Source: a bacterium
Lineage (GTDB): Bacteria > Patescibacteriota > Minisyncoccia > Moranbacterales > DUUL01
Direction of reading: 5' to 3'
Assembly (NCBI GenBank): GCA_018675685.1
Contig: JABGXP010000020.1
Span: forward strand, 37,680-101,679
DNA length: 64,000 bases
Position 1 is the first letter of the stretch; each line of letters begins with the position of its first letter. Shown here piece after piece: positions 1-38,734 of this stretch. The position numbers and the translations under genes were made by a program. The notes beneath the pieces were generated by a model that saw only the letters and a list, made by a program, of their open reading frames with translations, did no database searches and was not told the origin of the DNA.

Positions 1-576
1 AATGCAAATCAAGACGGACTCCTGGCTCGCCTTCAGAGGGTTGAGGGTTTAAGAATCAAAACAATAGCTCAAGGAGCTGCTTTGGCCCAAAATCTTTTTG
101 GAGGAGAAATTGAAGAGGAAATTGAAGAGCTTTCCGGGAAGAAGATTATTGGACTAATTGAAAAAGTGAAGCTTACCAGCATTGACGGAAGGGCAATCGA
201 AGTAGAAGCAAAAATTGATACTGGTGCTGACTCTTCCTCTATTGACATTGAGCTTGCAAGACAACTTGGTTTTGGAGCGATAATTAACGGATTTAATGAA
301 GCTGATATTTCCAATTACGATATTGATCCTGGAAAAGAGAAGGAAATTAAGGAAGACTTCATGAGTCAGTTTGGAACGAAAATTCCAGGAATAGAAAGCG
401 TCGCAGTTATTTTTTCATCCAGTGGAAAATCAATTCGCCCAGTTGTAAAATGTTCATTTGTGATGGATGAGGAAAAAGTTATTTCTAAAATGAACATCAC
501 TGATCGGAGCAAGCTAAATTATCAAATGATTGTAGGGCGTAAAGATCTGAGGAAATTTTTAGTGGAAATTAGATAG
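1..576 (+). CDS. RimB-like retropepsin / 'putative ATP-dependent zinc protease' (pfam05618-like) aspartic peptidase; probably 5'-partial, since the frame is open back to nt 1 (the ORF track starts at TTG 82)
   Basis: It has a DTGA aspartic-protease motif (…AKIDTGADSSSIDIELAR…) and resembles the RimK-associated peptidase family. It sits directly upstream of RimK-type ATP-grasp genes. There is no in-frame stop between nt 1 and 82. Confidence 0.55.
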   Translation, partial: NANQDGLLARLQRVEGLRIKTIAQGAALAQNLFGGEIEEEIEELSGKKIIGLIEKVKLTSIDGRAIEVEAKIDTGADSSSIDIELARQLGFGAIINGFNEADISNYDIDPGKEKEIKEDFMSQFGTKIPGIESVAVIFSSSGKSIRPVVKCSFVMDEEKVISKMNITDRSKLNYQMIVGRKDLRKFLVEIR

Positions 577-617
577 TTTAGTGCAAGAAAAGGAAGTTAA
601 TTGAATAATCAAAGAAA

Positions 618-1478
618 ATGAAATTTTTAATTTTAGGTGCAATTGACACAGAAAACACAAAAGATCTTGAATTGGAAATTTTAAAAAAAGGTCATGAAGT
701 TGCTAAGGTAAATCCAAAAGATTTCCTCTTCAGTGTTGAGAACAATGAATTTAATATAGCTGCGAGTGGAGTTAATCTTCTTAATTTTGATATATATCTT
801 CTTCGAGGATATAACATTTCCATCACTGAAACTAGGATTTTTGTTGAAAAATTGTTAAGTTTAGGGAAGATTGTAATAGATGAGGTTGTTGGAGAACAAT
901 ATATCCCCAGCAAGCTTTTTGAAGCCAGTTGTCTTTCTCGAGTCGGTTTGAATCACCCAAAAACATTTTCTATTTTAAAAGAGGAATCATTTGATTTATT
1001 TAAAGAAAAACTCGACTACCCAGTAATTGTAAAGCCAGTGGATGGACAGAAAGGACAGGATATGTACAAGTTCGAGTCGGAAGACCAATTAAATATTTTT
1101 ATTAAAAAAAATCAACGTGGCTGGTTGATTCAGGAGTGTTTACCAATAGATGGAGATGTAAGAGTTTTTGTCGTCGGAAGCGAAGTTCTGGGTGCTATTA
1201 AGAGATTTACAGTCGAAGGAGATTTTCGCTCAAATGCATCGCTCGGAGCAAACGCTAAAGAATTCGAATTAACCGAGGAGATAAAAGAAATTGCCCTAAA
1301 AGCCAAGGAGGCAATGAACTGTGAAGTAGCTGGAGTCGATTTGGCCTGGTCTAAAGAGAAGTGGTATGTGATTGAAGTTAATTTTTCCCCACAATGGCAA
1401 AAATTCAAAGAAATAACAGGATTAAACCCTGCTGAAAAAATAATTGAATATGCAATAGGTAAATATAACAATAAATAG
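618..1478 (+). CDS. RimK-family ATP-grasp ligase (alpha-L-glutamate ligase-like)
   Basis: 286 aa with ATP-grasp C-terminal motifs (…DVRVFVVGSEVLGAIKR…GDFRSNASLGANA…YVIEVNFSPQW…GLNPAEKII). Its stop overlaps the next start (TAGATG). Confidence 0.7.
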   Translation: MKFLILGAIDTENTKDLELEILKKGHEVAKVNPKDFLFSVENNEFNIAASGVNLLNFDIYLLRGYNISITETRIFVEKLLSLGKIVIDEVVGEQYIPSKLFEASCLSRVGLNHPKTFSILKEESFDLFKEKLDYPVIVKPVDGQKGQDMYKFESEDQLNIFIKKNQRGWLIQECLPIDGDVRVFVVGSEVLGAIKRFTVEGDFRSNASLGANAKEFELTEEIKEIALKAKEAMNCEVAGVDLAWSKEKWYVIEVNFSPQWQKFKEITGLNPAEKIIEYAIGKYNNK

Positions 1479-2417
1479 ATGAAGAAAAAAATAGGATTTT
1501 TTAAAAAACCGCAGGGAGTTTTTACAGAAGACTTTATTGGAGAAATCAAGGAAACATTAATGAACATTGAAGGGATCGAACTTTTTACAGAGCTTGATTA
1601 TCGAGAAGCATTTGTTAAAAACGGAGAGGTGTATATTGGTGATTTCAATCTAAATCAGCTCGATGTTTATTTTTGGCATGATATTGTCCATGTTAAGTTA
1701 TGGAAAGGGGATAACTACATTTTGAATGTCCTTAGTGCATTGGAAAAAGATTGTGTAGTTGTAAACTCAGTTAAATCCTCGAGAATTGTTAATGACAAAT
1801 ACCTTTCACATCTTGAATTGTTAAAGGCTGGATTGCCAGTTTCAGATTTTTCACTAGTTAATATCAAAAACCGAGATGCAGTAAGAAATGCTTTCAATGG
1901 AATGGGTGGTTCTGTTCTTTTGAAACCACGATACGGGGGTTTTGGGAGTGGAATTGTGAAAATCGACTCAGAAGAAAGATTGTTTGAGGTTTTGGAGTTT
2001 ATGCAAAATTATGTTGAAGCTCCAGATCAGCAGATATTAATGGAACGATTCTATGAAAACGACATTGAAAAGTGGACATCAGTTGTGGTTTTTGGTGACA
2101 AGGTCTTGTTCGGTTATCGAAAAAAAGTACTTGGTGATTCTGATTGGAAAGTTTATGATCCAGAAAGAAAAGACGCAAAGGGTCAATTCACTGATTATGT
2201 GAAAGTCGATGAAGAATTAGCAGTATTAGCGTTGAAGGCGAAAAATGCAATTGGAAAAGATATTATTTGTTTTGACTTTATTCACACCAAAGAGGGTTGG
2301 AAAATTATCGATGAAAACGGTCGGCCAGGATTATATCGACATTGCTTAGAAGCAGCTGGTGTAGATTTAAAAAAAGAAGTTGTGGATTTGATATTGTCAA
2401 AAATCAAGAAAGACTAG
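1479..2417 (+). CDS. ATP-grasp ligase, a divergent RimK/GshB-like paralog
   Basis: 312 aa containing …LLKPRYGGFGSGIVKI… and …VVVFGDKVLFGYRKK…GWKIIDENGRPGLY. It is translationally coupled to the upstream ATP-grasp gene. Confidence 0.6.
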   Translation: MKKKIGFFKKPQGVFTEDFIGEIKETLMNIEGIELFTELDYREAFVKNGEVYIGDFNLNQLDVYFWHDIVHVKLWKGDNYILNVLSALEKDCVVVNSVKSSRIVNDKYLSHLELLKAGLPVSDFSLVNIKNRDAVRNAFNGMGGSVLLKPRYGGFGSGIVKIDSEERLFEVLEFMQNYVEAPDQQILMERFYENDIEKWTSVVVFGDKVLFGYRKKVLGDSDWKVYDPERKDAKGQFTDYVKVDEELAVLALKAKNAIGKDIICFDFIHTKEGWKIIDENGRPGLYRHCLEAAGVDLKKEVVDLILSKIKKD

Positions 2418-2458
2418 AAGTTTATTTGTTAAAAAGGTAAAAAATAAAGTTCAAAGAT

Positions 2459-3337
2459 ATGAAAAGGATGCTTATTATCGTCGAAAACAGTGAAGAAGAA
2501 CAGTATCGTACCCTGAGAATTTTAGAAGAGGCAGAAAAAATGGGCTGCAAAGTTGATCTAATCAATAGCAGCGGAATGAAATTTCTGACAAATAAAGTCT
2601 TTGTCAAAGGAAAAGAACTCTACTTTGAAGAGTATGATGCGATTTATTCAATCGGAAACAGTGATAGACATCACTATTTTATTATGTTAGCAACAATCAA
2701 AACAGGAGTTCGGATTTGGCCTAGCAACAAACATCTTTTAATGAATGACAAGTTTTTCGAAGGAATCTTTTTGGACAATTTAGGAATCAGAACGCCCAAG
2801 ACAATTTTACTAACAAGCAAGGAAAAAGTAGTTGTAGATAAATTAGTAGAAGAAATTGGCGGTTACCCATGTGTTGCAAAGAAGGTTACGGGCTCTGAAG
2901 GAAGATATGTTTGCTTGGTAGAATCTTTTGATGATCTGTATAAATTTCTAGAGAAATTACCACATCCAAGCATTTCAGGAAAGAAAGGCATTCTTTTGCA
3001 AGAATATATAGAAGAATCCAAAGGGACTGATTTTAGGACATATTGCGTTGGTGATGAGATTCTAGGAGCTATTCAAAGAACCTCGCAAACTGATGATTTC
3101 AGAGCTAATGTTTCTTTAGGTGGTGTAGCGGAAAAGATTGAGGTGACAGCTGAAATGGAGGAGTTTTCAAGAAAAATAATGAAAGAAGGAAATTTTTTGT
3201 TTGCTGGAATCGATTTTATTATGAGCAACAGTGGTTTAGTAGCAATTGAAATCAATACATCTGCTGATTTTAAGGGATTTGAAAAAGCCACAGGAATTAA
3301 TGTCGCAGAAAAAATAATCAAAAAGTTTTTAGAATAA
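2459..3337 (+). CDS. RimK-family ATP-grasp ligase (third paralog)
   Basis: 292 aa containing …DFRTYCVGDEILGAIQRTSQTDDFRANVSLGG…VAIEINTSADFKGFEKATGINVAEKII. Confidence 0.65.
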   Translation: MKRMLIIVENSEEEQYRTLRILEEAEKMGCKVDLINSSGMKFLTNKVFVKGKELYFEEYDAIYSIGNSDRHHYFIMLATIKTGVRIWPSNKHLLMNDKFFEGIFLDNLGIRTPKTILLTSKEKVVVDKLVEEIGGYPCVAKKVTGSEGRYVCLVESFDDLYKFLEKLPHPSISGKKGILLQEYIEESKGTDFRTYCVGDEILGAIQRTSQTDDFRANVSLGGVAEKIEVTAEMEEFSRKIMKEGNFLFAGIDFIMSNSGLVAIEINTSADFKGFEKATGINVAEKIIKKFLE

Positions 3338-3473: not shown

Positions 3474-5882
3474 ATGTGGTTAGTGAAACTGATACTTCTT
3501 GCAGTAGGAACTTGGATTTTGGCCAAGTTGTTTTTGTCGGATAAGGACCTAGGAAATTTAATAAAAAAGAAGAATCGCAAACTTTCCCCAACTAAAGGGA
3601 GTAACAAAAAAAGAAAACCAAGAAGTTTTCTTGTGAAGTCTTTATGGACAATGTTTTATATAGGCATTTCGTTAGTTGCTATTGTTGTTTGTATTTTAGG
3701 ATATGCCTTTGTTAAATATGCAAAGGATTTACCAGACCCAGAAAAAGTAAACAGTCGTGTTGTCGCTGAGTCAACAAAGATTTTCGATCGAACGGGTGAT
3801 GTTTTACTATACGAAGTGTTTGGTGAAGAGAAAAGGACAATAATTCCATTGGAAGAGATTCCTGATTCTGTTAAATATGCAACAATCGTTTTGGAAGATG
3901 ATATTTTCTATTCTCATAATGGTTTTGATATGGGCGGGCTCGTGAAAGCTATTTGCCATGAAGCTTCCTCGAGGGCTGGAATGGGTGATTTGGGAGGGAT
4001 TTGCCCCCGAAGAGGCGGCTCAACCATTACCCAACAATTTATTAAGAATTCTATTTTAACATCGGAAAGAAGTTATGAGCGAAAATTGAAAGAATTAATC
4101 CTAGCTGTAGAGATTGAGCAAAAGTTCTCTAAAGATGAGATCTTGCGAATGTATTTAAATGAAATTCCTTATGGTTCAAATGCATATGGAATTGAGGCCG
4201 CAGCACAAACATTTTTTGGAGTTCATGCCAAAGAACTGACATTAGCACAATCAGCTCTATTAGCTGGGTTGCCCAATGCTTCAACTTTCTATTCTCCACA
4301 CGGTTCTAATACGGATAGATTGCTGGTTCGTTGGAAAAAGGCTTTGAATTTAATGTCTGACCTAGGTTATATCACAAAAGAACAAGCTGTTTCAGCAATA
4401 GCAGAAGATATTTTAGGACAAATAAAACCGATTAAGGCTGATATTAAAGCACCTCACTTTGCTTTGTATGTAAGAGAGAAATTGATTGAAGAGTTTGGCG
4501 AAGAAAAATTAAAGGAAAAGGGCTTGAAGATCTACACTACGCTTGATTGGGATTTGCAACAATTAGGAGAAAAAGTTGTAAAAGAAGGTGTCGAAAAAAA
4601 TGGTGAACGCTATGGTTTTACAAACTCTGCATTAGTTGCAACAAATCCTAAAAATGGACAGGTTTTGGCGATGGTTGGATCAAAAGATTATTTTGATGAA
4701 GAGATTGATGGGAATGTTAATGTTACGACACGTTTAAGGCAACCAGGTTCATCTGTTAAGCCATATGTATATGCACAAGCTTTTTCAAAGGGCTATGACC
4801 CAGAGACGATTATTTTTGATGTAAAAACAAAGTTTTCTGAATCTGATAATAAAGAGGAGGAATATAAGCCAGAGAATTATGACGGAAAATTCAGAGGCCC
4901 AGTTTCAATGAAGAAAGCTTTGTCGACATCTTTAAATGTACCAGCAGTAAAAACGCTCTATCTCGCAGGAATAAAACCATCGATAAATTTGATGAGGGAA
5001 ATGGGGATTAGCACGCTAACTGATCCAGGGAGATATGGTCTTTCGCTTGTTCTTGGCGGTGGAGAAGTCAAGCTGATTGAGCACGTGGGAGCTTTTGGTG
5101 TCTTTGCTAATGAAGGGAGGAAACATGAACAATCAGTAATTTTAAGAGTTGAGGATGCTGAAGGGAATATTTTACAAGAATTCAAGGAAAAGGAAGGAAG
5201 ACAGGTTTTAGGCAAAAAGGTCGCAGCAACAATGAGTGCTATCTTGTCAGATAACAATCTTAGGGCCTCAGCATTTGGAACTCAGAACCCACTATATATT
5301 GAAGGAAGAAGCGTGATTGCAAAGACTGGGACAACAAATGAATTTCGTGATGGATGGCTTGTAGGCGCTTCGCGTTCATTGGCAGCAGGCGTTTGGTCAG
5401 GCAATAATGATAATACAGCGATGAAACCGGGTGCAGCAGGAGCAAACATCTCTGGTCCAACTTGGCATGCTTTCATGGTGGAGGCTTTGAAAAATTCGCA
5501 AGATGAGGAATTTTTGAAAATTGAAGATATTGAAGATGAAGAAAATGACGACGAGGAAGTAAAGCGTAAAGGAATTCTATACGGAAAAATAGATTTTGTT
5601 GAAAAAATTGAAGTTTGTAAATATGATGACGGTGATTATTGTTTGGAAAATAGTAGTTGTCCAGAGAAAAAAGTCGATAAGAAAAAATATTTCACGGGGC
5701 ATAACATACTTTACTATGTAAATAAGGATGACCCCCAAGGTGGACCGCCAAAAAGAGCTAAGGATGATCCACAATATAAAAATTGGGAAAAAGCAGTCTT
5801 GGAATGGGCAGAAGATCATGCCGACGGTAAAGGTCGCAAGCTACCACCGGAAAAGAAGTGTAAGGATAGTTATTTTGATTAA
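3474..5882 (+). CDS. mrcA: Class A penicillin-binding protein 1A (bifunctional transglycosylase/transpeptidase) with a roughly 130-aa acidic, Cys-containing C-terminal tail
   Basis: GT51 motifs EDDIFYSHNGFD and GGSTITQQ are present. Transpeptidase motifs SSVKP (SxxK), SLN and KTGT are present, along with a transmembrane helix. An alternative in-frame ATG start lies at 3651. Confidence 0.85.
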   Translation: MWLVKLILLAVGTWILAKLFLSDKDLGNLIKKKNRKLSPTKGSNKKRKPRSFLVKSLWTMFYIGISLVAIVVCILGYAFVKYAKDLPDPEKVNSRVVAESTKIFDRTGDVLLYEVFGEEKRTIIPLEEIPDSVKYATIVLEDDIFYSHNGFDMGGLVKAICHEASSRAGMGDLGGICPRRGGSTITQQFIKNSILTSERSYERKLKELILAVEIEQKFSKDEILRMYLNEIPYGSNAYGIEAAAQTFFGVHAKELTLAQSALLAGLPNASTFYSPHGSNTDRLLVRWKKALNLMSDLGYITKEQAVSAIAEDILGQIKPIKADIKAPHFALYVREKLIEEFGEEKLKEKGLKIYTTLDWDLQQLGEKVVKEGVEKNGERYGFTNSALVATNPKNGQVLAMVGSKDYFDEEIDGNVNVTTRLRQPGSSVKPYVYAQAFSKGYDPETIIFDVKTKFSESDNKEEEYKPENYDGKFRGPVSMKKALSTSLNVPAVKTLYLAGIKPSINLMREMGISTLTDPGRYGLSLVLGGGEVKLIEHVGAFGVFANEGRKHEQSVILRVEDAEGNILQEFKEKEGRQVLGKKVAATMSAILSDNNLRASAFGTQNPLYIEGRSVIAKTGTTNEFRDGWLVGASRSLAAGVWSGNNDNTAMKPGAAGANISGPTWHAFMVEALKNSQDEEFLKIEDIEDEENDDEEVKRKGILYGKIDFVEKIEVCKYDDGDYCLENSSCPEKKVDKKKYFTGHNILYYVNKDDPQGGPPKRAKDDPQYKNWEKAVLEWAEDHADGKGRKLPPEKKCKDSYFD

Positions 5883-5924: not shown

Positions 5925-6779
5925 ATGAAACAAAAAACAAAAAAACAAAAAAACACCAAACTTCTTGATAGAATTAACAGGCAAGCTGAAAAAATAAAAA
6001 GATTGTTAGTTATTTTGGTTTTGGTTATAACTCCCATATATGTTTTATTCGCTGCCTTTCTATACTTTAATCAAGCCAATTTCTTCTACTACCCTGATAA
6101 GAGAGACTTTGAGAAATGTGATAGTTTCAAGGATTATCAAAAAACAAACAGCAATGGAACCAGAATGTATTATCAGGAAAAATCGAAAGAAGAAGTGATC
6201 GTTTTTTATCACGGCAATGTTGGTTCGGCTTGTGACAGGACTCATCTAAAACGTATTTTTAAAGGGACTAATAAATCAGTTATTTTTGTTGAATATGCTG
6301 GATATGCTGATGATCCCAAGATTCCCAGCAAAGAGTTAATTTTTCAAGACGTTTTCAATGTGAACACTTTTGTTCGTGAAAAAAGTTTCAAAAACATAAC
6401 AGTCGTAGGGGAAAGTATCGGAACAGGACCAGCCTCTTTCCATGCGAAAATTGGACAAGTTGAAAAACTATTGTTAGTAGCACCATTTGGGAAGATAGAA
6501 GATGTTGCTAAGGGTCGATATCCGATTTTTCCAATTTCAATCATGATCAAGGAAGATTATGATAATGTTAAAGCCCTTGAGAATTATAGAGGAAAAGTTT
6601 TAATTATTTCTGGGTCTGAGGACAAAGTCCTTCCAGCTAGATTTTCAGAGGAACTGTTTGAGAAATTGAATGTTCGTGAAAAAGAGCATGTTTCAGTTTT
6701 TGGGGCAGTGCACAACGATTTATTTAGTTTTCCTGAAACAATAGAAGGGATTGAAGAATTTATAAAAGATGAGGAATAA
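5925..6779 (+). CDS. Alpha/beta-fold hydrolase with an N-terminal membrane anchor
   Basis: GESIG nucleophile elbow (VVGESIGTGPAS) and an N-terminal hydrophobic helix. Confidence 0.6.
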   Translation: MKQKTKKQKNTKLLDRINRQAEKIKRLLVILVLVITPIYVLFAAFLYFNQANFFYYPDKRDFEKCDSFKDYQKTNSNGTRMYYQEKSKEEVIVFYHGNVGSACDRTHLKRIFKGTNKSVIFVEYAGYADDPKIPSKELIFQDVFNVNTFVREKSFKNITVVGESIGTGPASFHAKIGQVEKLLLVAPFGKIEDVAKGRYPIFPISIMIKEDYDNVKALENYRGKVLIISGSEDKVLPARFSEELFEKLNVREKEHVSVFGAVHNDLFSFPETIEGIEEFIKDEE

Positions 6780-15028: not shown

Positions 15029-16540
15029 ATGTTCAAGGATTACAACCGACCAAATTATTCAAAAAGTGATCAACCAAAAGAAAATCGACGAAGGGAGGTC
15101 CCTGGTGAAAAGAAGATGGGGAGACGAACCTTCCTAAAAGCCACAGCTCTGATTGGCGCTAGTTTGGGGATTGGTAAATTCGCAATGAATCTTTTTGATG
15201 ATAAGGAAGTGGAGGATGACAATGAACAAGAAAGACTTGAAAAAGGTGAGCCAAGAGAAGAGTTGGCGACAGAAGGTCAACTGGAGATTGAGCGAGATGA
15301 TGAAAACATTATTGGTAGCACAATTGAAGAGCAGTTGAAGAAGAGCGAAAAAGTGACATTGAATATTGAAACTAAGAATGCTCTTCGCAAGAAATGGAAA
15401 GAAAGTTATGCAAAGAAACCAGTTGATTGTCCTGCAGAAGATAAGGAAACTGGGAGAAATCATCTTGGGCTCTTGCAATCAATGGAAAGAATGCAACCTT
15501 GGATTGCGGATATCAAAGCTGAATTTAGAAAAATTGGTGTTCCAGAGAAATTTGCATATCTTGCAATCCCAGAATCACATTTTGACGTCAATGGTAACTC
15601 CAGAGCGATGGCTAAGGGTCCGTATCAGTTTACAAAAGAAACTGCAAAGCTTTTCGAACTATCTGTTGGAAATGGAATTGATGAGCGTTGTGACCCAATC
15701 CAGAGCGCTAGAGCCTGTGCTGAACATTTAAAATATAGCTATGGAAGATTTAATGATGACTGGGAACTAGCCTTTGCCGACTATAATGGTGGTTTTACGA
15801 ATGATTATGCCAAGTTTCGTCCCAAGAAAGCAGATAGAAATTATGAAGATTATTTAGCTTGGCGAGAAGGGAGAATCAATAATTATATCGCAAAAGACCA
15901 CTATCAGCACAAGGTGAAGAAGAGCGACCAGAATCTAACAAAAATTTCTAGATTCTACGGAATTTCAGTTGCTGATATTATGGAAGCAAACGAGATGAAG
16001 GATGACCAAATCAATATTGGACAAGAATTGAAAATTCCAGCAACAACTTCTGTTAAAATGTTTAAATTGCGCGATTCCTTGGAGAATTTAAACTATCCAG
16101 AAAAATTCTATGCGGTGCTAGATGTAATTGAAGAAGAAGAACTGGAAAAACAGTTTCCTTCATCGCCAGTACAGTTCAATGTAGAAGAAGTTCCTAGGAT
16201 TAAAACAACAGATTTTTCATATAAAGTGAAAAAAGGAGATGGATTGTTTGCTATCGCAAGAAGGATCAAATCTGCAGCAGAAAAGAAAAGTTCCAAGATG
16301 AATCTTTCCATTTTACAGGTTCAGCGGTTTATCCAAGAACAAAACAAGATATCAAATCCTGGGAAAATATATCAGGGGCAGGAATTGAAAGTCAAATTGC
16401 CCTTAGAAGGAGGGGTCTCTCTTAACAAGATTGCACATGATCGCAGAATGTTGATTAAGGATTTGGAGTATTTAAACCCAGCCATTGTTGATTCGAAAGA
16501 AATTTTGTCTATAGGGAGGATTATTAGAACTCCAAAATAA
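15029..16540 (+). CDS. Lytic transglycosylase (SLT domain) with two LysM domains
   Basis: SLT catalytic region (…LAIPESHFDVNG…AKGPYQF…) and LysM repeats (…TKISRFYGISVADIM…; …YKVKKGDGLFAIARRI…). An alternative ATG start at 15116 gives a MGRRTFLKATALIGA twin-arginine-like signal. Confidence 0.75.
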   Translation: MFKDYNRPNYSKSDQPKENRRREVPGEKKMGRRTFLKATALIGASLGIGKFAMNLFDDKEVEDDNEQERLEKGEPREELATEGQLEIERDDENIIGSTIEEQLKKSEKVTLNIETKNALRKKWKESYAKKPVDCPAEDKETGRNHLGLLQSMERMQPWIADIKAEFRKIGVPEKFAYLAIPESHFDVNGNSRAMAKGPYQFTKETAKLFELSVGNGIDERCDPIQSARACAEHLKYSYGRFNDDWELAFADYNGGFTNDYAKFRPKKADRNYEDYLAWREGRINNYIAKDHYQHKVKKSDQNLTKISRFYGISVADIMEANEMKDDQINIGQELKIPATTSVKMFKLRDSLENLNYPEKFYAVLDVIEEEELEKQFPSSPVQFNVEEVPRIKTTDFSYKVKKGDGLFAIARRIKSAAEKKSSKMNLSILQVQRFIQEQNKISNPGKIYQGQELKVKLPLEGGVSLNKIAHDRRMLIKDLEYLNPAIVDSKEILSIGRIIRTPK

Positions 16541-27200: not shown

Positions 27201-27650
27201 TTATTCAATTTCAGAATCTTCCGTCTCGGAAGTTTCCTCAGCTGTAGTTATTTGAGGGGGAGCGTCTTGAGGAGTTGGTTTTTCTTCTATTTGTTTGGCA
27301 CTTGTTTTCTTAAAAGAGACGGAAAAATTCGGTTCATATAGATTATTATATTCGTCAACAACTTCAACCGGTTTACCTTCCATTAGAGTTGTCATTGCAA
27401 TGTCATTTTGAATTTGTTTTAGATCTGCTATTGTCATCTTTAAATCATCAATACGATCCCAGCGAGTACCCATTTGTGATTGAGCAATTGTTTCAAGCTC
27501 TTTTTTCCGCAACTTTAATTCATCTAACTTCTCAACTAATTCCTGATATTCTTGATTCTGAGTCAAAGCGTCTTTATATTCAGCGCGGATTTCGGATTGT
27601 TCTCTTTTCGCCTCTTTTAGCTCATTGAAAATTTCTTGAATCTCTTTCAT
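27201..27650 (-). CDS. Hypothetical coiled-coil protein with an acidic C-terminus
   Basis: Heptad-rich, Glu/Lys/Gln-rich sequence of 149 aa. Confidence 0.4.
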   Translation of the reverse strand: MKEIQEIFNELKEAKREQSEIRAEYKDALTQNQEYQELVEKLDELKLRKKELETIAQSQMGTRWDRIDDLKMTIADLKQIQNDIAMTTLMEGKPVEVVDEYNNLYEPNFSVSFKKTSAKQIEEKPTPQDAPPQITTAEETSETEDSEIE

Positions 27651-36484: not shown

Positions 36485-38734
36485 ATGCATAAGACGATTT
36501 ATATCGACATAGACGAAGAAATAACCAGTGTTTTGGATAAAATAAGAGACGAAAAATCTAGTGAGATTTGCATTGTTGTTCCGAAGAACGCAGCCTTGAC
36601 ACAGGGAATTATCAATTTGAAATTGTTGAAAAAAGAGTCGGCTAAGTACGGAAAAACAATAGTAATCGCAACTAACGATCCCCAGGCTAGGAAAGTTATC
36701 AAGCGCCTTGAAATAAAAACACAAGAGATTGCAGAAACTGATTTGAAAGGGAGTAGCGAGTTAAAGAAAGTCGAAAAGACTGAAAAGGAAACTGAGCCAA
36801 TGGAAATCCAAGAGGAAGCAAACAATCAAACTGAAGAACTCAAAGGTGAAATCAAGATGACAAAAGAAGAATTTGTGACCAGCGATATAGGTTCAGAGAC
36901 ATTTTTTGATGGAATTATTCCGGAGCCAATCATTGATGATAAAAAGGAGAACAATATCAAAAGTGATATTAAAAAACAAGAACCAAATTTAATCTCACCG
37001 AATGAATTGCGCGAAGAATTATATCCCAGAAAAACAGATTTTAAGAATGAAAAAGTTCCACAGATAAAGCAGAAAAAAAATAAAGAGACCGTTTCTGCAA
37101 GTTTGGAAGAGATGTCTGATTTGAAGCCAGTAACAACCGTTGATAAACAAAACGACCTAATAAAAAGAGTTGATACAATGGACAGACAAGCTAAAACTGT
37201 CAGAAAAATCACTCCTTCAGAAGGGAAGAATTCTTCCGAAGCAAACCCAGCCATGAAAACAATTCCAAGAGGAGGCAAAACAGTTGTTTCTCGTTCAGTC
37301 GACTTTGGAGATAAAATGCAAGAATCAAAAAAAGGTCCAAGTAACGGAAGAGTATTAGCTACCAGTTTTGATTTGCAGAAGCAATCGTCCGAGGGAGGAG
37401 ATTTCAAGGTAACAGAAGAGCTCAATTTAAAAAGCTTTGATGAAGAAACTTCGAAGAAAGCAGAAGAATTTTTTGGAATAGAGCCCAAGAAACCAAAGGA
37501 GTCCATAAAAGAGATGAAAAAACAAGTAAAGAGGGTTGAGAAGGAAATTGTCCAGTCAAAAAACCAAAAGGGATTTATAAGGCGCTGGGGATTTGCTATT
37601 ATGATAGCCTTTTCATTTGTTGGAATTGGTGGTTTTACTGCTTGGGGGTATATGAATTATCCACAGGCTGAAATTAAAATTCATCCAAGAAAGAAAGATT
37701 TTTCTAAAGAGATTAAAATTTCAGTCAAAGAAGGCGCAGATAAAAGCGGCTTTGAGAAAGGTGTTATTCCAGGGCAATACAAGGAAATGACAGTTCAAAA
37801 GACAATGAAGTTCAATGCTACTGGTGAGACCTACGCGACTGATGATGGAAAAGCAAAAGGAAAAGTTACTATATATAATAAGTATTCAAAAAAAGAACAA
37901 CCCCTTGTTGCGACTACAAGAGTTCTCTCTAAAGAAGGTAAGCTGTTTAGACTTATTAAGGGCGTTACAGTTCCGGGAATGGAAAATGATAATCCTGGCA
38001 CAGTCGAAGCCGCTGTGATTGCTGATAAGCCAGGGGAGGAGTTTAATATCGGTTCTTCCGCTTTTACGATTGAGGGATTTAAGGGGAAACCACAGTATGA
38101 TAAATTTGAAGTGAAATCTTTCGAACCAATGACAGATGGAGGTTCTCCGGATTCAAACAAGAAATTATCCATGATCTCGATAGCTGATATCGCAAGGGCT
38201 CGTGAAAAAACAATTACAGCTTTAGAAAAAAGTCTTGAAGAAGAAGTGAAAGCCCAATTAGGAGTTGAAATGAGTGCGATGTTTGACTCAGTTGAAAAAG
38301 AAATTATAGGAGCTTCTTCTACTAATGAGGTCAAGGATGTCGTGAAAAGTTTTTCATACACTGTTGAGCAAAAAATTAAATTGATTACTTTTCTGACAGC
38401 AGATGTTAATTCAGCCGTACTTCTTGGCATGAGACAGGATGTTGAAGATGGCTATGAAATAGAAGAGTCTGAAAGTAATGTTACTTTCAAAAAAAGTATC
38501 ACTGATCTTGAAAAGAAAACAATGACGATGTATCTAGATTCCTCAGCCACAGCTTGGCCAATAATCGAAGCGGAGCAGTTAGCGCAAAGTATTGCTGAGA
38601 AAAAGGAAGAAGAAATTCGTGTTATCTTGCTAGGATATCCCACAATTGAAAAAATTGAATTTTTAGTGAAACCGTCCTGGTTAACAGGTCTGCCAATTTC
38701 AAAGGACAAGATTGATGTTTCAGTTGTGAAATAG
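36485..38734 (+). CDS. Hypothetical large bitopic membrane protein (cytoplasmic N-terminal domain, one TM helix, large extracytoplasmic C-terminal domain)
   Basis: 749 aa. One hydrophobic helix (…FAIMIAFSFVGIGGFTAWGY…). It lies immediately downstream of the ftsA-like gene. Confidence 0.45.
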   Translation: MHKTIYIDIDEEITSVLDKIRDEKSSEICIVVPKNAALTQGIINLKLLKKESAKYGKTIVIATNDPQARKVIKRLEIKTQEIAETDLKGSSELKKVEKTEKETEPMEIQEEANNQTEELKGEIKMTKEEFVTSDIGSETFFDGIIPEPIIDDKKENNIKSDIKKQEPNLISPNELREELYPRKTDFKNEKVPQIKQKKNKETVSASLEEMSDLKPVTTVDKQNDLIKRVDTMDRQAKTVRKITPSEGKNSSEANPAMKTIPRGGKTVVSRSVDFGDKMQESKKGPSNGRVLATSFDLQKQSSEGGDFKVTEELNLKSFDEETSKKAEEFFGIEPKKPKESIKEMKKQVKRVEKEIVQSKNQKGFIRRWGFAIMIAFSFVGIGGFTAWGYMNYPQAEIKIHPRKKDFSKEIKISVKEGADKSGFEKGVIPGQYKEMTVQKTMKFNATGETYATDDGKAKGKVTIYNKYSKKEQPLVATTRVLSKEGKLFRLIKGVTVPGMENDNPGTVEAAVIADKPGEEFNIGSSAFTIEGFKGKPQYDKFEVKSFEPMTDGGSPDSNKKLSMISIADIARAREKTITALEKSLEEEVKAQLGVEMSAMFDSVEKEIIGASSTNEVKDVVKSFSYTVEQKIKLITFLTADVNSAVLLGMRQDVEDGYEIEESESNVTFKKSITDLEKKTMTMYLDSSATAWPIIEAEQLAQSIAEKKEEEIRVILLGYPTIEKIEFLVKPSWLTGLPISKDKIDVSVVK

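Follow-up and report, generated by a model that had tools for sequence, protein, structure and literature searches.

What is a retropepsin-like peptidase doing beside a series of ATP-grasp ligases at the start of a stretch of Moranbacterales DNA? The locus occupies the first 3,337 nucleotides of the window, by which is meant the whole stretch analysed here: 64,000 nucleotides from an uncultured member of the Patescibacteriota (GenBank assembly GCA_018675685.1, contig JABGXP010000020.1, positions 37,680 to 101,679). A sequence-only reading of this DNA had taken it for an operon of a RimB-like peptidase gene followed by three RimK-type ligase genes, with the rimBK system as its model. The comparisons described below point elsewhere. 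Judged by its sequence, the locus is the distal four fifths of a five-gene operon, a Patescibacteria (Moranbacteria-like) relative of rloABC rather than a rimBK operon. Among studied systems it comes closest to rloABC of Pseudomonas aeruginosa (PMC12239564), and its invariant partner is a membrane protein with seven transmembrane segments (7TM).

The operon and its core proteins

Four successive frames lie on the forward strand between positions 1 and 3337, the last three of which (G1, G2 and G3) are complete. The list of open reading frames (ORFs) places the start of the first at a TTG codon at base 82, yet the frame is already open at base 1. A look-up of exact matches to G1 led to contig JABHFW010000017.1 of assembly GCA_018672345.1 (L001), which was read as the parent contig for the upstream part. 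Window base 1 is position 9384 of L001, and a 20.9-kb stretch of that contig was examined with a domain table. The full gene was found at L001:8556-9959 and encodes a protein of 467 amino acids, so the window begins inside it. The features of the region are as follows.

1-576, forward strand: 3' part of the fusion gene (residues 277-467 of 467 amino acids), with its start 827 nt upstream of the window and its stop codon at 574-576
1-96, forward strand: end of the RloC-type ATP-grasp domain, part of the fusion gene
97-138 (residues 309-322), forward strand: Glu-rich linker FGGEIEEEIEELSG, conserved, of low model confidence
139-573, forward strand: retropepsin domain, PF05618
217-228, forward strand: catalytic D-T-G-A (D349-A352; gat act ggt gct), with K347 before it
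618-1478, forward strand: G1, accessory ligase 1, RimK-family ATP-grasp protein of 286 amino acids (PF08443, TIGR00768)
1479-2417, forward strand: G2, accessory ligase 2, divergent ATP-grasp protein of 312 amino acids (PF08443 only; fails TIGR00768)
2459-3337, forward strand: G3, accessory ligase 3, RimK-family ATP-grasp protein of 292 amino acids (PF08443, TIGR00768)
3474-5882, forward strand: class A penicillin-binding protein of the PBP1A type, 802 amino acids, with transglycosylase and transpeptidase domains

The peptidase that had been read as a separate gene is a genuine PF05618 domain within 1-576 (36.8 bits), but it forms the C-terminal third of the 467-residue protein, whose N-terminal two thirds, 310 residues long, are themselves an ATP-grasp ligase. 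The operon therefore encodes four ATP-grasp ligases rather than three and no free-standing protease. Directly upstream of the fusion gene and outside the window lies a 7TM gene (231 amino acids), which overlaps it by 26 nt. Instead of a protease followed by three ligases, the true layout is 7TM, the fusion of ATP-grasp and retropepsin, then the ATP-grasp genes G1, G2 and G3; it adds the upstream 7TM gene and a fourth ATP-grasp domain, fused to the protease. On L001 the 7TM gene is preceded by a 290-nt spacer and then by an unrelated LUD/Fe-S gene. The G1 stop codon (TAG, 1476-1478) abuts the G2 ATG at 1479, giving the TAGATG junction already noticed in the sequence-only reading, and the 41-nt gap between G2 and G3 (2418-2458) was likewise confirmed; 136 nt separate G3 from the PBP1A gene. 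The operon boundaries were drawn solely from gene spacing, since a scan for promoters and terminators returned the counts expected of shuffled sequence. The guanine-cytosine (GC) content is 0.30-0.39 across the region and is not distinct from the surroundings. Chance was ruled out for ORFs of such lengths in a genome of 35% GC, with E-values of 1e-11 to 1e-53. No tRNA or Rfam family was found in the window, and none of the five proteins matched a PADLOC defence model at E <= 0.001.

Residues 17-291 of the fusion protein match PF14397, the "sugar-transfer associated" ATP-grasp family, with 235.8 bits (cutoff 31.4), and the whole protein scores 296.5 bits against TIGR02291, "alpha-L-glutamate ligase-like protein", a hypothetical-equivalog model with a cutoff of 314.2. 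It is a non-member of the RimK family TIGR00768 (53.5 bits, cutoff 143.4). The N-terminal domain is 43-45% identical over about 300 amino acids to an unfused proteobacterial gene of the RloC type. In alignments of 10 and of 40 homologues, the ATP-grasp landmarks are invariant or nearly so: K79-P, the Gly-rich loop, D159-x-R161, N186 and E266-x-N268-A-R-P-G. An AlphaFold2 (AF2) model with a mean predicted local distance difference test (pLDDT) score of 82.4 has two domains and a flexible join at residues 311-316 (pLDDT below 50), inside the FGGEIEEEIEE-x-SG linker. Structurally, the ligase domain is closest to RimK, ArgX/LysX and the ATP-grasp module of cyanophycin synthetase.

Residues 326-465 match the PF05618 retropepsin model with 33.5 bits in the full protein and 36.8 bits in the window ORF (cutoff 27). 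The proposed RimB identity did not hold: against the RimB equivalog NF052261 (cutoff 200) the window ORF reaches 20.9 bits and the full protein 16.8 bits, below the 33-39 bits obtained with the RloA1-3 models (37-39 bits for the window ORF; cutoffs 210-280). The retropepsin landmarks K347-x-D349-T-G-A, R422 ("RPV"), R445 ("DRS") and GR(K/R)DL are invariant or nearly so in the same two alignments, with D-T-G-A itself present in 40 of 40 homologues. The clan AA / PF05618 signature, D349-T-G-A plus the C-terminal G455-R-K-D-L, is thus found, both elements being conserved. Furthermore, the segment can be aligned with two solved structures of the RloA type, 9g58 and 9g59 (the DTGA with that of 9g58) and with proteobacterial RloA genes. 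In RloA, the residues K46, D48, R114 and R137 line the site of poly-glutamate binding and cleavage, and the substitutions R114A/R137A abolish function (PMC12239564); the 23 residues between R422 and R445 equal the R114-R137 spacing. An acidic, Glu-rich substrate would be expected for the domain, mainly from these conserved basic residues, which match the poly-Glu site of RloA.

A hydropathy scan showed neither a transmembrane segment nor a signal peptide in the fusion protein, G1, G2 or G3. The protease, fused to the C-terminus of the ligase and without a signal peptide, is accordingly predicted to be cytoplasmic. Because its family cuts Glu-rich sequences, self-processing of the fusion protein at the Glu-rich linker is conceivable, though this is speculation. 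In a set of 5.8 billion proteins the fusion protein has over 4,500 homologues; the best 120 are 60-100% identical to it and almost all have both domains. Those that carry a name belong to Moranbacteria or to the "Patescibacteria group".

The 7TM protein matches PF14402 ("7TM_transglut") with 99.7 bits. Only positions 313-508 of the 508-position NCBIfam RloB model were matched (77 bits, cutoff 900), and the protein corresponds to the C-terminal half of RloB. No match to PF14400, the periplasmic inactive-transglutaminase domain of RloB, was found in it, whereas a proteobacterial control (L071) has both PF14400 and PF14402. The hydropathy scan counted seven hydrophobic segments, followed by a C-terminal tail that holds six Lys/Arg residues. 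In every fused-type locus that reaches upstream (within L004-L062 of the survey described below), the 7TM gene stands immediately before the fusion gene. In two loci of the Kerfeldbacteria type, N-terminal PKD domains replace the transglutaminase domain on the 7TM protein (L029:7437-9044, 535 amino acids, labelled Kerfeldbacteria; L041:7338-8999, 553 amino acids). Such domains fit an outward-facing N-terminus.

The accessory ligases and their turnover

The three downstream ORFs are ATP-grasp proteins, as had been described, and all pass the RimK-domain model PF08443 (cutoff 21), G1 with 120, G2 with 43 and G3 with 134 bits. With the first frame passing PF05618, the profile check bore out that a retropepsin domain is encoded together with RimK-type ligases. 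G1 (162.1 bits) and G3 (180 bits) also pass TIGR00768, the rimK_fam model (cutoff 143.4), while G2 (69.2 bits) fails it. Narrower models score lower. Against the S6--L-glutamate ligase equivalog NF007764 (cutoff 331), G1 reaches 88 and G3 98.7 bits, and G2 does not have it among its 25 best matches; the LysX equivalog TIGR02144 (cutoff 275.6) gives 121, 71 and 147 bits for G1, G2 and G3, and the MptN model (cutoff 350) gives 128 bits for G1 and 118 for G3. The closest solved relative of G1 is E. coli RimK (5ZCT/4IWX, 82 bits) and that of G3 is 4IWX (94.7 bits). Both proteins align to E. coli RimK across D-x-R and GDFR[S/A]N...G[G/A], of which G1 keeps GDFRSN...G.

The three ligases are indeed divergent from one another: G1 and G3 are 36% identical over 191 amino acids, in their catalytic halves, and G2 is 24% and 18% identical to the other two. 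The possibility of a recent tandem duplication of G1-G3 was considered and rejected, since they belong to separate subfamilies (18-36% identity), each with its own orthologues elsewhere.

G2 is closest in sequence to LysX (33 bits) and ArgX (28 bits). Its family, with 72 matches among the 5.8 billion proteins, retains K149-P-R with the phosphate-binding lysine, the Gly-rich loop, D266 and the metal site D278-E279-N280, and it has signatures of its own in YFWHD, DWK-x-YDP and DENGRPGLY. The AF2 model (pLDDT 90.2) has a complete ATP-grasp fold, with a template modelling (TM) score of 0.75 to RimK and 0.69-0.70 to LysX/ArgX. On these sequence and model features, G2 is read as a putative active ligase with an altered acceptor or amino-acid pocket. 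That it might be a decayed pseudo-enzyme was also considered; this was rejected on the 45-65% identity within the family, about 60 invariant positions that include the ATP/Mg site, and the confident model.

A scan of species-representative genomes returned 80 loci (L004-L083); loci with a fusion-type gene number at least 498 in the species set. The fused form makes up L004-L062, under the labels Moranbacteria, Paceibacteria, Kerfeldbacteria, Dojkabacteria, Levy-, Woese- and Shapirobacteria. The remaining loci, L063-L083, come from Proteobacteria and Cyanobacteria and have an unfused ligase beside an RloB of about 510 amino acids (PF14400 plus PF14402), several with a separate PF05618 gene of the RloA type. 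Some "TPA_asm" loci (L006, L007, L011, L012, L014, L024, L037, L040 and others) are labelled as uncultured Bdellovibrionales or Gammaproteobacteria and show the Moranbacteria-type gene order: YebC, RuvC, 7TM, fusion, PBP1A, DnaN, DnaA. The taxonomic labels of these loci look wrong.

The genes downstream of the fusion gene were counted in the 41 loci with at least 3 kb of sequence on its 3' side. ATP-grasp genes follow directly in 31 of them: one gene in 17, two in 13 and three in 1. Two more loci (L018 and L022), in which the ligase ORF starts before the fusion gene ends, had been missed by the start filter, which brings the number to 33 of 41. The accessory ligases fall into at least 8 sequence subfamilies, representatives of which were confirmed as ATP-grasp proteins by Pfam. 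The G1 type is the commonest, with 21 members, and stands next to the fusion gene in many lineages. Among these loci the G3 type occurs once, and the G2 type is confined to the contig of the window. Because related genomes carry anywhere from 0 to 3 ligases in this cassette, the multi-step pathway of three serial ligases that had been suggested for the locus does not hold as a fixed arrangement.

G2 was then followed into the other contexts that were read (L084-L086). In all three, the G2 gene begins 14-26 nt before the end of a G1 orthologue (39-47% identity), both lying downstream of 7TM and fusion genes, and a third ligase of differing type lies before or after the pair. Since the adjacency or overlap recurs in every context read, G1-G2 is a conserved coupled pair, and the arrangement of three ligases recurs in the G2-bearing sub-lineage. 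An 85-residue ORF (L085:7946-8203), with no recorded domain and no counterpart in the window, lies between the G2-like gene and the third ligase gene of L085. G3 has about 55 close homologues; these are on contigs with fusion homologues, and lie between the fusion gene and the PBP1A gene where the context was read.

The closest relative found, L089, has fusion, PBP1A and GroEL proteins that are 86%, 82% and 88% identical to those of the window. Its cassette (L089:1664-6894, against 618-3337 in the window) encodes a 550-residue protein without a recorded Pfam domain, a 591-residue RimK-type fusion and two G3-like paralogues. No orthologue of G1 or G2 was found in L089, and G3 matches the two tandem paralogues at just 49-51%. 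The flanks are thus 82-88% identical yet the cassette is wholly different, from which it follows that the accessory ligases are a rapidly exchanged cassette between conserved flanks.

Other features of the cassettes were recorded. The GC content of the cassette, 0.33-0.34, is slightly under that of the flanks, 0.36-0.38, in the window genome and L089 alike. Downstream of the fusion gene, L038 (4800-5918) and its counterpart in L039 encode a carboxypeptidase of the MATCAP family (PF08014, 157 bits) beside an ATP-grasp_3 ligase of about 500 amino acids, a pairing that resembles the tubulin tyrosination cycle.

A proposed mechanism and its alternatives

In P. aeruginosa, the secreted retropepsin RloA cleaves stretches of at least 8 glutamates, and the ATP-grasp protein RloC is cytoplasmic (Lormand et al. 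2025, mBio, PMC12239564). A strain without any of the three RloA paralogues dies under hypo-osmotic conditions, is sensitive to beta-lactam antibiotics and has cell-shape defects, and deletion of rloB or rloC suppresses these defects; the system was tied in 2025 to osmotic tolerance, beta-lactam sensitivity, biofilm formation and cell shape (PMC12239564). On this precedent we lean, with moderate confidence, toward a remodelled relative of rloABC, tethered to the membrane, that would use ATP to make a glutamate-rich peptide or tail and would also trim it.

The ligases would use ATP to build or extend an acidic, Glu-rich alpha-peptide, either free or as a tail on an acceptor, a product suggested by membership in the RimK family and by the basic cleft of the protease. 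Differing accessory ligases might prime the chain or add different residues, with G1 and G2 acting as a pair. The rapid turnover of the accessory set makes it probable that the product differs chemically between lineages. The retropepsin domain would dimerise, presenting a basic substrate cleft, and would trim or release the Glu-rich product; it may also stimulate the ligases, as RimB does RimK, the trimming or activating role being drawn by analogy with RimB. The 7TM protein would tether the machine to the membrane and pass or present the product to the envelope, as the gene overlap, the topology and the genetics of Rlo suggest, and the product is possibly destined for the cell envelope. By "Rosetta-stone" reasoning, the fusion of ligase and protease argues strongly that RloC-type ligases share one substrate with RloA-type proteases, here on the cytoplasmic side.

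The gene neighbourhood was considered in the same light. In 20 of the 41 loci a gene for a PBP1A homologue was found no more than 6.5 kb downstream of the fusion gene, and L084, L086, L088 and L089 have one as well; such a recurrent neighbour fits the envelope phenotypes of rlo mutants. The extracellular PKD domains of the 7TM protein in some lineages were counted as a further link to the envelope. It is mildly suggestive that the genome of the window has lost the YebC-RuvC side and kept the PBP1A side. Promoter-like hexamers are present in the 136-nt spacer before the PBP1A gene, in a scan that overall did no better than shuffled sequence.

Several points weigh against the synthesis-and-trimming reading. 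The fusion protein falls slightly under the TIGR02291 cutoff (296.5 against 314.2 bits), and its retropepsin domain is far under the RloA and RimB equivalog cutoffs. G2 is without the D-x-R arginine and the N...RGG motif of RimK/LysX and could be a non-catalytic partner. The "glutamate-rich peptide" is put forward by analogy, through the likeness to RimK and the basic residues of the protease, and the RloC/PF14397 enzymes are without a demonstrated product. The Pseudomonas model of export followed by trimming outside the cytoplasm is not directly transferable, because the protease here is cytoplasmic. The linkage to PBP1A may be inherited gene order rather than functional coupling, since the whole region YebC-RuvC-7TM-fusion-...-PBP1A-DciA-DnaN-DnaA is conserved in many relatives. 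The ORF scans of the region, moreover, brought up neither an acceptor protein nor a precursor peptide. The sequence-only reading was right that a substrate is not visible in the window. Its suggestion of a small precursor peptide upstream was followed through the upstream contig, where nothing convincing was seen: no convincing precursor or carrier peptide was found near the cluster among ORFs of at least 20 amino acids in the 290 nt upstream of the 7TM gene and in the intergenic regions, nor any convincing small ORF with an acidic C-terminus in the window and the upstream contig.

The possibility was considered that the locus modifies the ribosome in the manner of rimBK, with one or more RimK-family ligases adding C-terminal glutamates to S6 and the retropepsin removing them. 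Among solved structures, G1 and G3 best match S6-glutamate ligases (RimK 5ZCT/4IWX, 82-95 bits), whose catalytic motifs they retain, the protease is cytoplasmic as is RimB, a classical RimB plus RimK pair is found in Saccharibacteria (L090), and protease-RimK hybrids are known and active (PMC11957791). However, G1 and G3 score 88 and 99 bits against an S6-ligase cutoff of 331 and the protease 17-21 bits against a RimB cutoff of 200. The protease is joined to a ligase of the RloC type and not of the RimK type, and the 7TM protein, an invariant partner, has no obvious use for a ribosome modifier. G3 shares only 30-36% identity with the genuine RimK of Saccharibacteria, a protein that has a Rimk_N domain. 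Accessory ligases that are missing in about a fifth of the loci and exchanged between close relatives are, moreover, hard to square with a universal, conserved target; given this turnover S6 seems unlikely as the substrate, and ribosome modification as a whole is judged quite improbable. No match to rpsF, the gene of ribosomal protein S6, was obtained when E. coli S6 was compared with the ORFs of the window and of 87 loci (1.3 Mb).

A C-terminal tailing cycle on a dedicated carrier or substrate protein, of the LysX/ArgX-LysW or tubulin kind and without export, would leave the 7TM protein as an anchor or regulator only. The best matches of G2, LysX and ArgX (33 and 28 bits), acylate the C-terminal glutamate of LysW, the LysX model gives 147 bits for G3 and 121 for G1, and the L038/L039 cassettes pair a MATCAP-family carboxypeptidase (PF08014) with an ATP-grasp ligase. 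All these scores are far under the LysX cutoff of 275.6, however, and neither a LysW-like gene nor LysY/Z/J/K genes appear in the L001 domain table or the window ORF list, although no search aimed at them was made; there is also no small ORF with an acidic C-terminus near the cluster. Such a cycle is regarded as rather unlikely. Maturation of a ribosomally synthesized and post-translationally modified peptide (RiPP), graspetide-like, in which ATP-grasp enzymes macrocyclise a precursor and the protease removes its leader, is very improbable indeed. RiPP clusters typically include a protease and a membrane protein, PsnB is among the fold matches, and there are weak matches to TIGR04187 (25-27 bits) and MvdC/MvdD (18-20 bits). 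These scores are more than tenfold under the cutoffs (350-475 bits), however, the intergenic regions hold no precursor ORF, and the invariant core is homologous to rloBC/rloA, which is chromosomal and widely conserved in Gammaproteobacteria.

A broader form of the synthesis-and-trimming reading was also entertained, although it is doubtful as it stands. The core and its exchangeable ligases might constitute a membrane-coupled, template-independent peptide machine that decorates the envelope of the candidate phyla radiation (CPR), on peptidoglycan or a surface component next to PBP1A, with short acidic peptides whose composition depends on the ligase set. If true, the locus would be one of hypervariable surface chemistry, with a logic like that of loci for O-antigen or capsule, although amide ligases would be its building blocks; it could matter for the attachment of episymbionts to hosts or for phage evasion, and would supply the missing product of the Pseudomonas Rlo system.

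Some neighbouring genes were recorded in their own right. Two genes downstream of G3, at window positions 5925-6779 on the forward strand, lies a 284-residue protein resembling alpha/beta-hydrolases, with an apparently hydrophobic N-terminus and the ending ...EEFIKDEE. Its acidic C-terminus recalls an acceptor of RimK-type enzymes; the hydrolase at a similar position in L085 is unrelated. The sole other ORF of the window with a strongly acidic C-terminus, at 27201-27650 on the reverse strand, encodes 149 amino acids and ends in ...ETSETEDSEIE. A second peptidoglycan-related gene nearby, at 15029-16540 on the forward strand, encodes a 503-residue protein with an SLT lytic-transglycosylase domain and LysM. 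A 749-residue ORF at 36485-38734 on the forward strand had no Pfam match at E <= 1e-4.

Relation to known systems

The protein families and the rlo and rim paradigms are already known. What distinguishes the locus is the fused RloC-RloA protein, the RloB without a transglutaminase domain and the hypervariable cassette of RimK-type ligases. Of the RloB matches reported for the Rlo system, 96% are in Proteobacteria (PMC12239564). The three-family core is nevertheless widespread and highly conserved outside that phylum, the fusion protein being 60-70% identical across many Patescibacteria genomes of about 1 Mb, and there RimK-type ligases join the core in a set that changes quickly. The physical fusion to the ligase indicates that the protease is able to work from the cytoplasmic side, and it supports a model of synthesis and trimming for the whole Rlo-type family. 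Small, soluble fused proteins would also be convenient material for biochemistry on the Rlo-type product.

A literature search on Patescibacteria with ATP-grasp and RimK, and on the architecture, found no paper describing such a locus. A neighbourhood of ATP-grasp, 7TM/inactive-transglutaminase and aspartyl-peptidase genes was reportedly predicted in 2009 by Iyer, Abhiman, Burroughs and Aravind (said to be in Mol Biosyst 5:1636). The families PF14397, PF14402 and PF05618 are said to have been defined in that work, with joint action on a cell-surface or peptide substrate predicted for them.

The likeness to rloABC is the closest. A PF14397/TIGR02291 ligase, a PF14402 7TM protein and a PF05618 retropepsin are encoded together in one operon, and the DTGA motif is conserved along with the basic residues that bind poly-glutamate in RloA. 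The differences lie in the protease, which is fused to the C-terminus of the ligase and cytoplasmic, whereas RloA is a separate protein secreted by means of a signal peptide; in the membrane protein, which is without the inactive-transglutaminase domain (a bare 7TM, with PKD in some relatives); and in the one to three extra ligases of the RimK superfamily. The host differs too, belonging to a Patescibacteria lineage without an outer membrane.

In the rim system, RimK glutamylates S6 and makes poly-alpha-Glu, and the cytoplasmic RimB trims Glu tails and stimulates poly-Glu synthesis (PMC11957791). G1 and G3 belong to the RimK family TIGR00768, and here as well a cytoplasmic retropepsin is co-encoded with ATP-grasp enzymes of the glutamate-ligase type. 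In contrast to rim, the proteins stay under the RimK and RimB equivalog thresholds, there is no RimA, several ligases take the place of one, and the conserved core is a membrane protein with an RloC-type ligase. A Saccharibacteria locus (L090:5573-6912) encodes a stand-alone RimB (140 amino acids) and a RimK (303 amino acids, with a Rimk_N domain) and no 7TM partner, and both rim-type and fused-type systems thus occur within Patescibacteria.

In the RimBK hybrid of Desulfotalea psychrophila the protease domain is N-terminal and has activity on polyglutamylated S6 (Little et al. 2025, JBC, PMC11957791), and such hybrids are found mainly in Flavobacteriales and Rhodobacterales (PMC11957791). The fusion protein of the window shares with them the union of a retropepsin-like protease and an ATP-grasp ligase in a single polypeptide, but its protease is C-terminal rather than N-terminal and its ligase is of the RloC/PF14397 type rather than RimK. 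The LysX/ArgX enzymes, which attach an amino acid to the C-terminal glutamate of the small protein LysW, share the RimK-superfamily fold with the accessory ligases; LysX is the top sequence match of G2 and a high-scoring model for G3, although all scores are well under the equivalog cutoffs.

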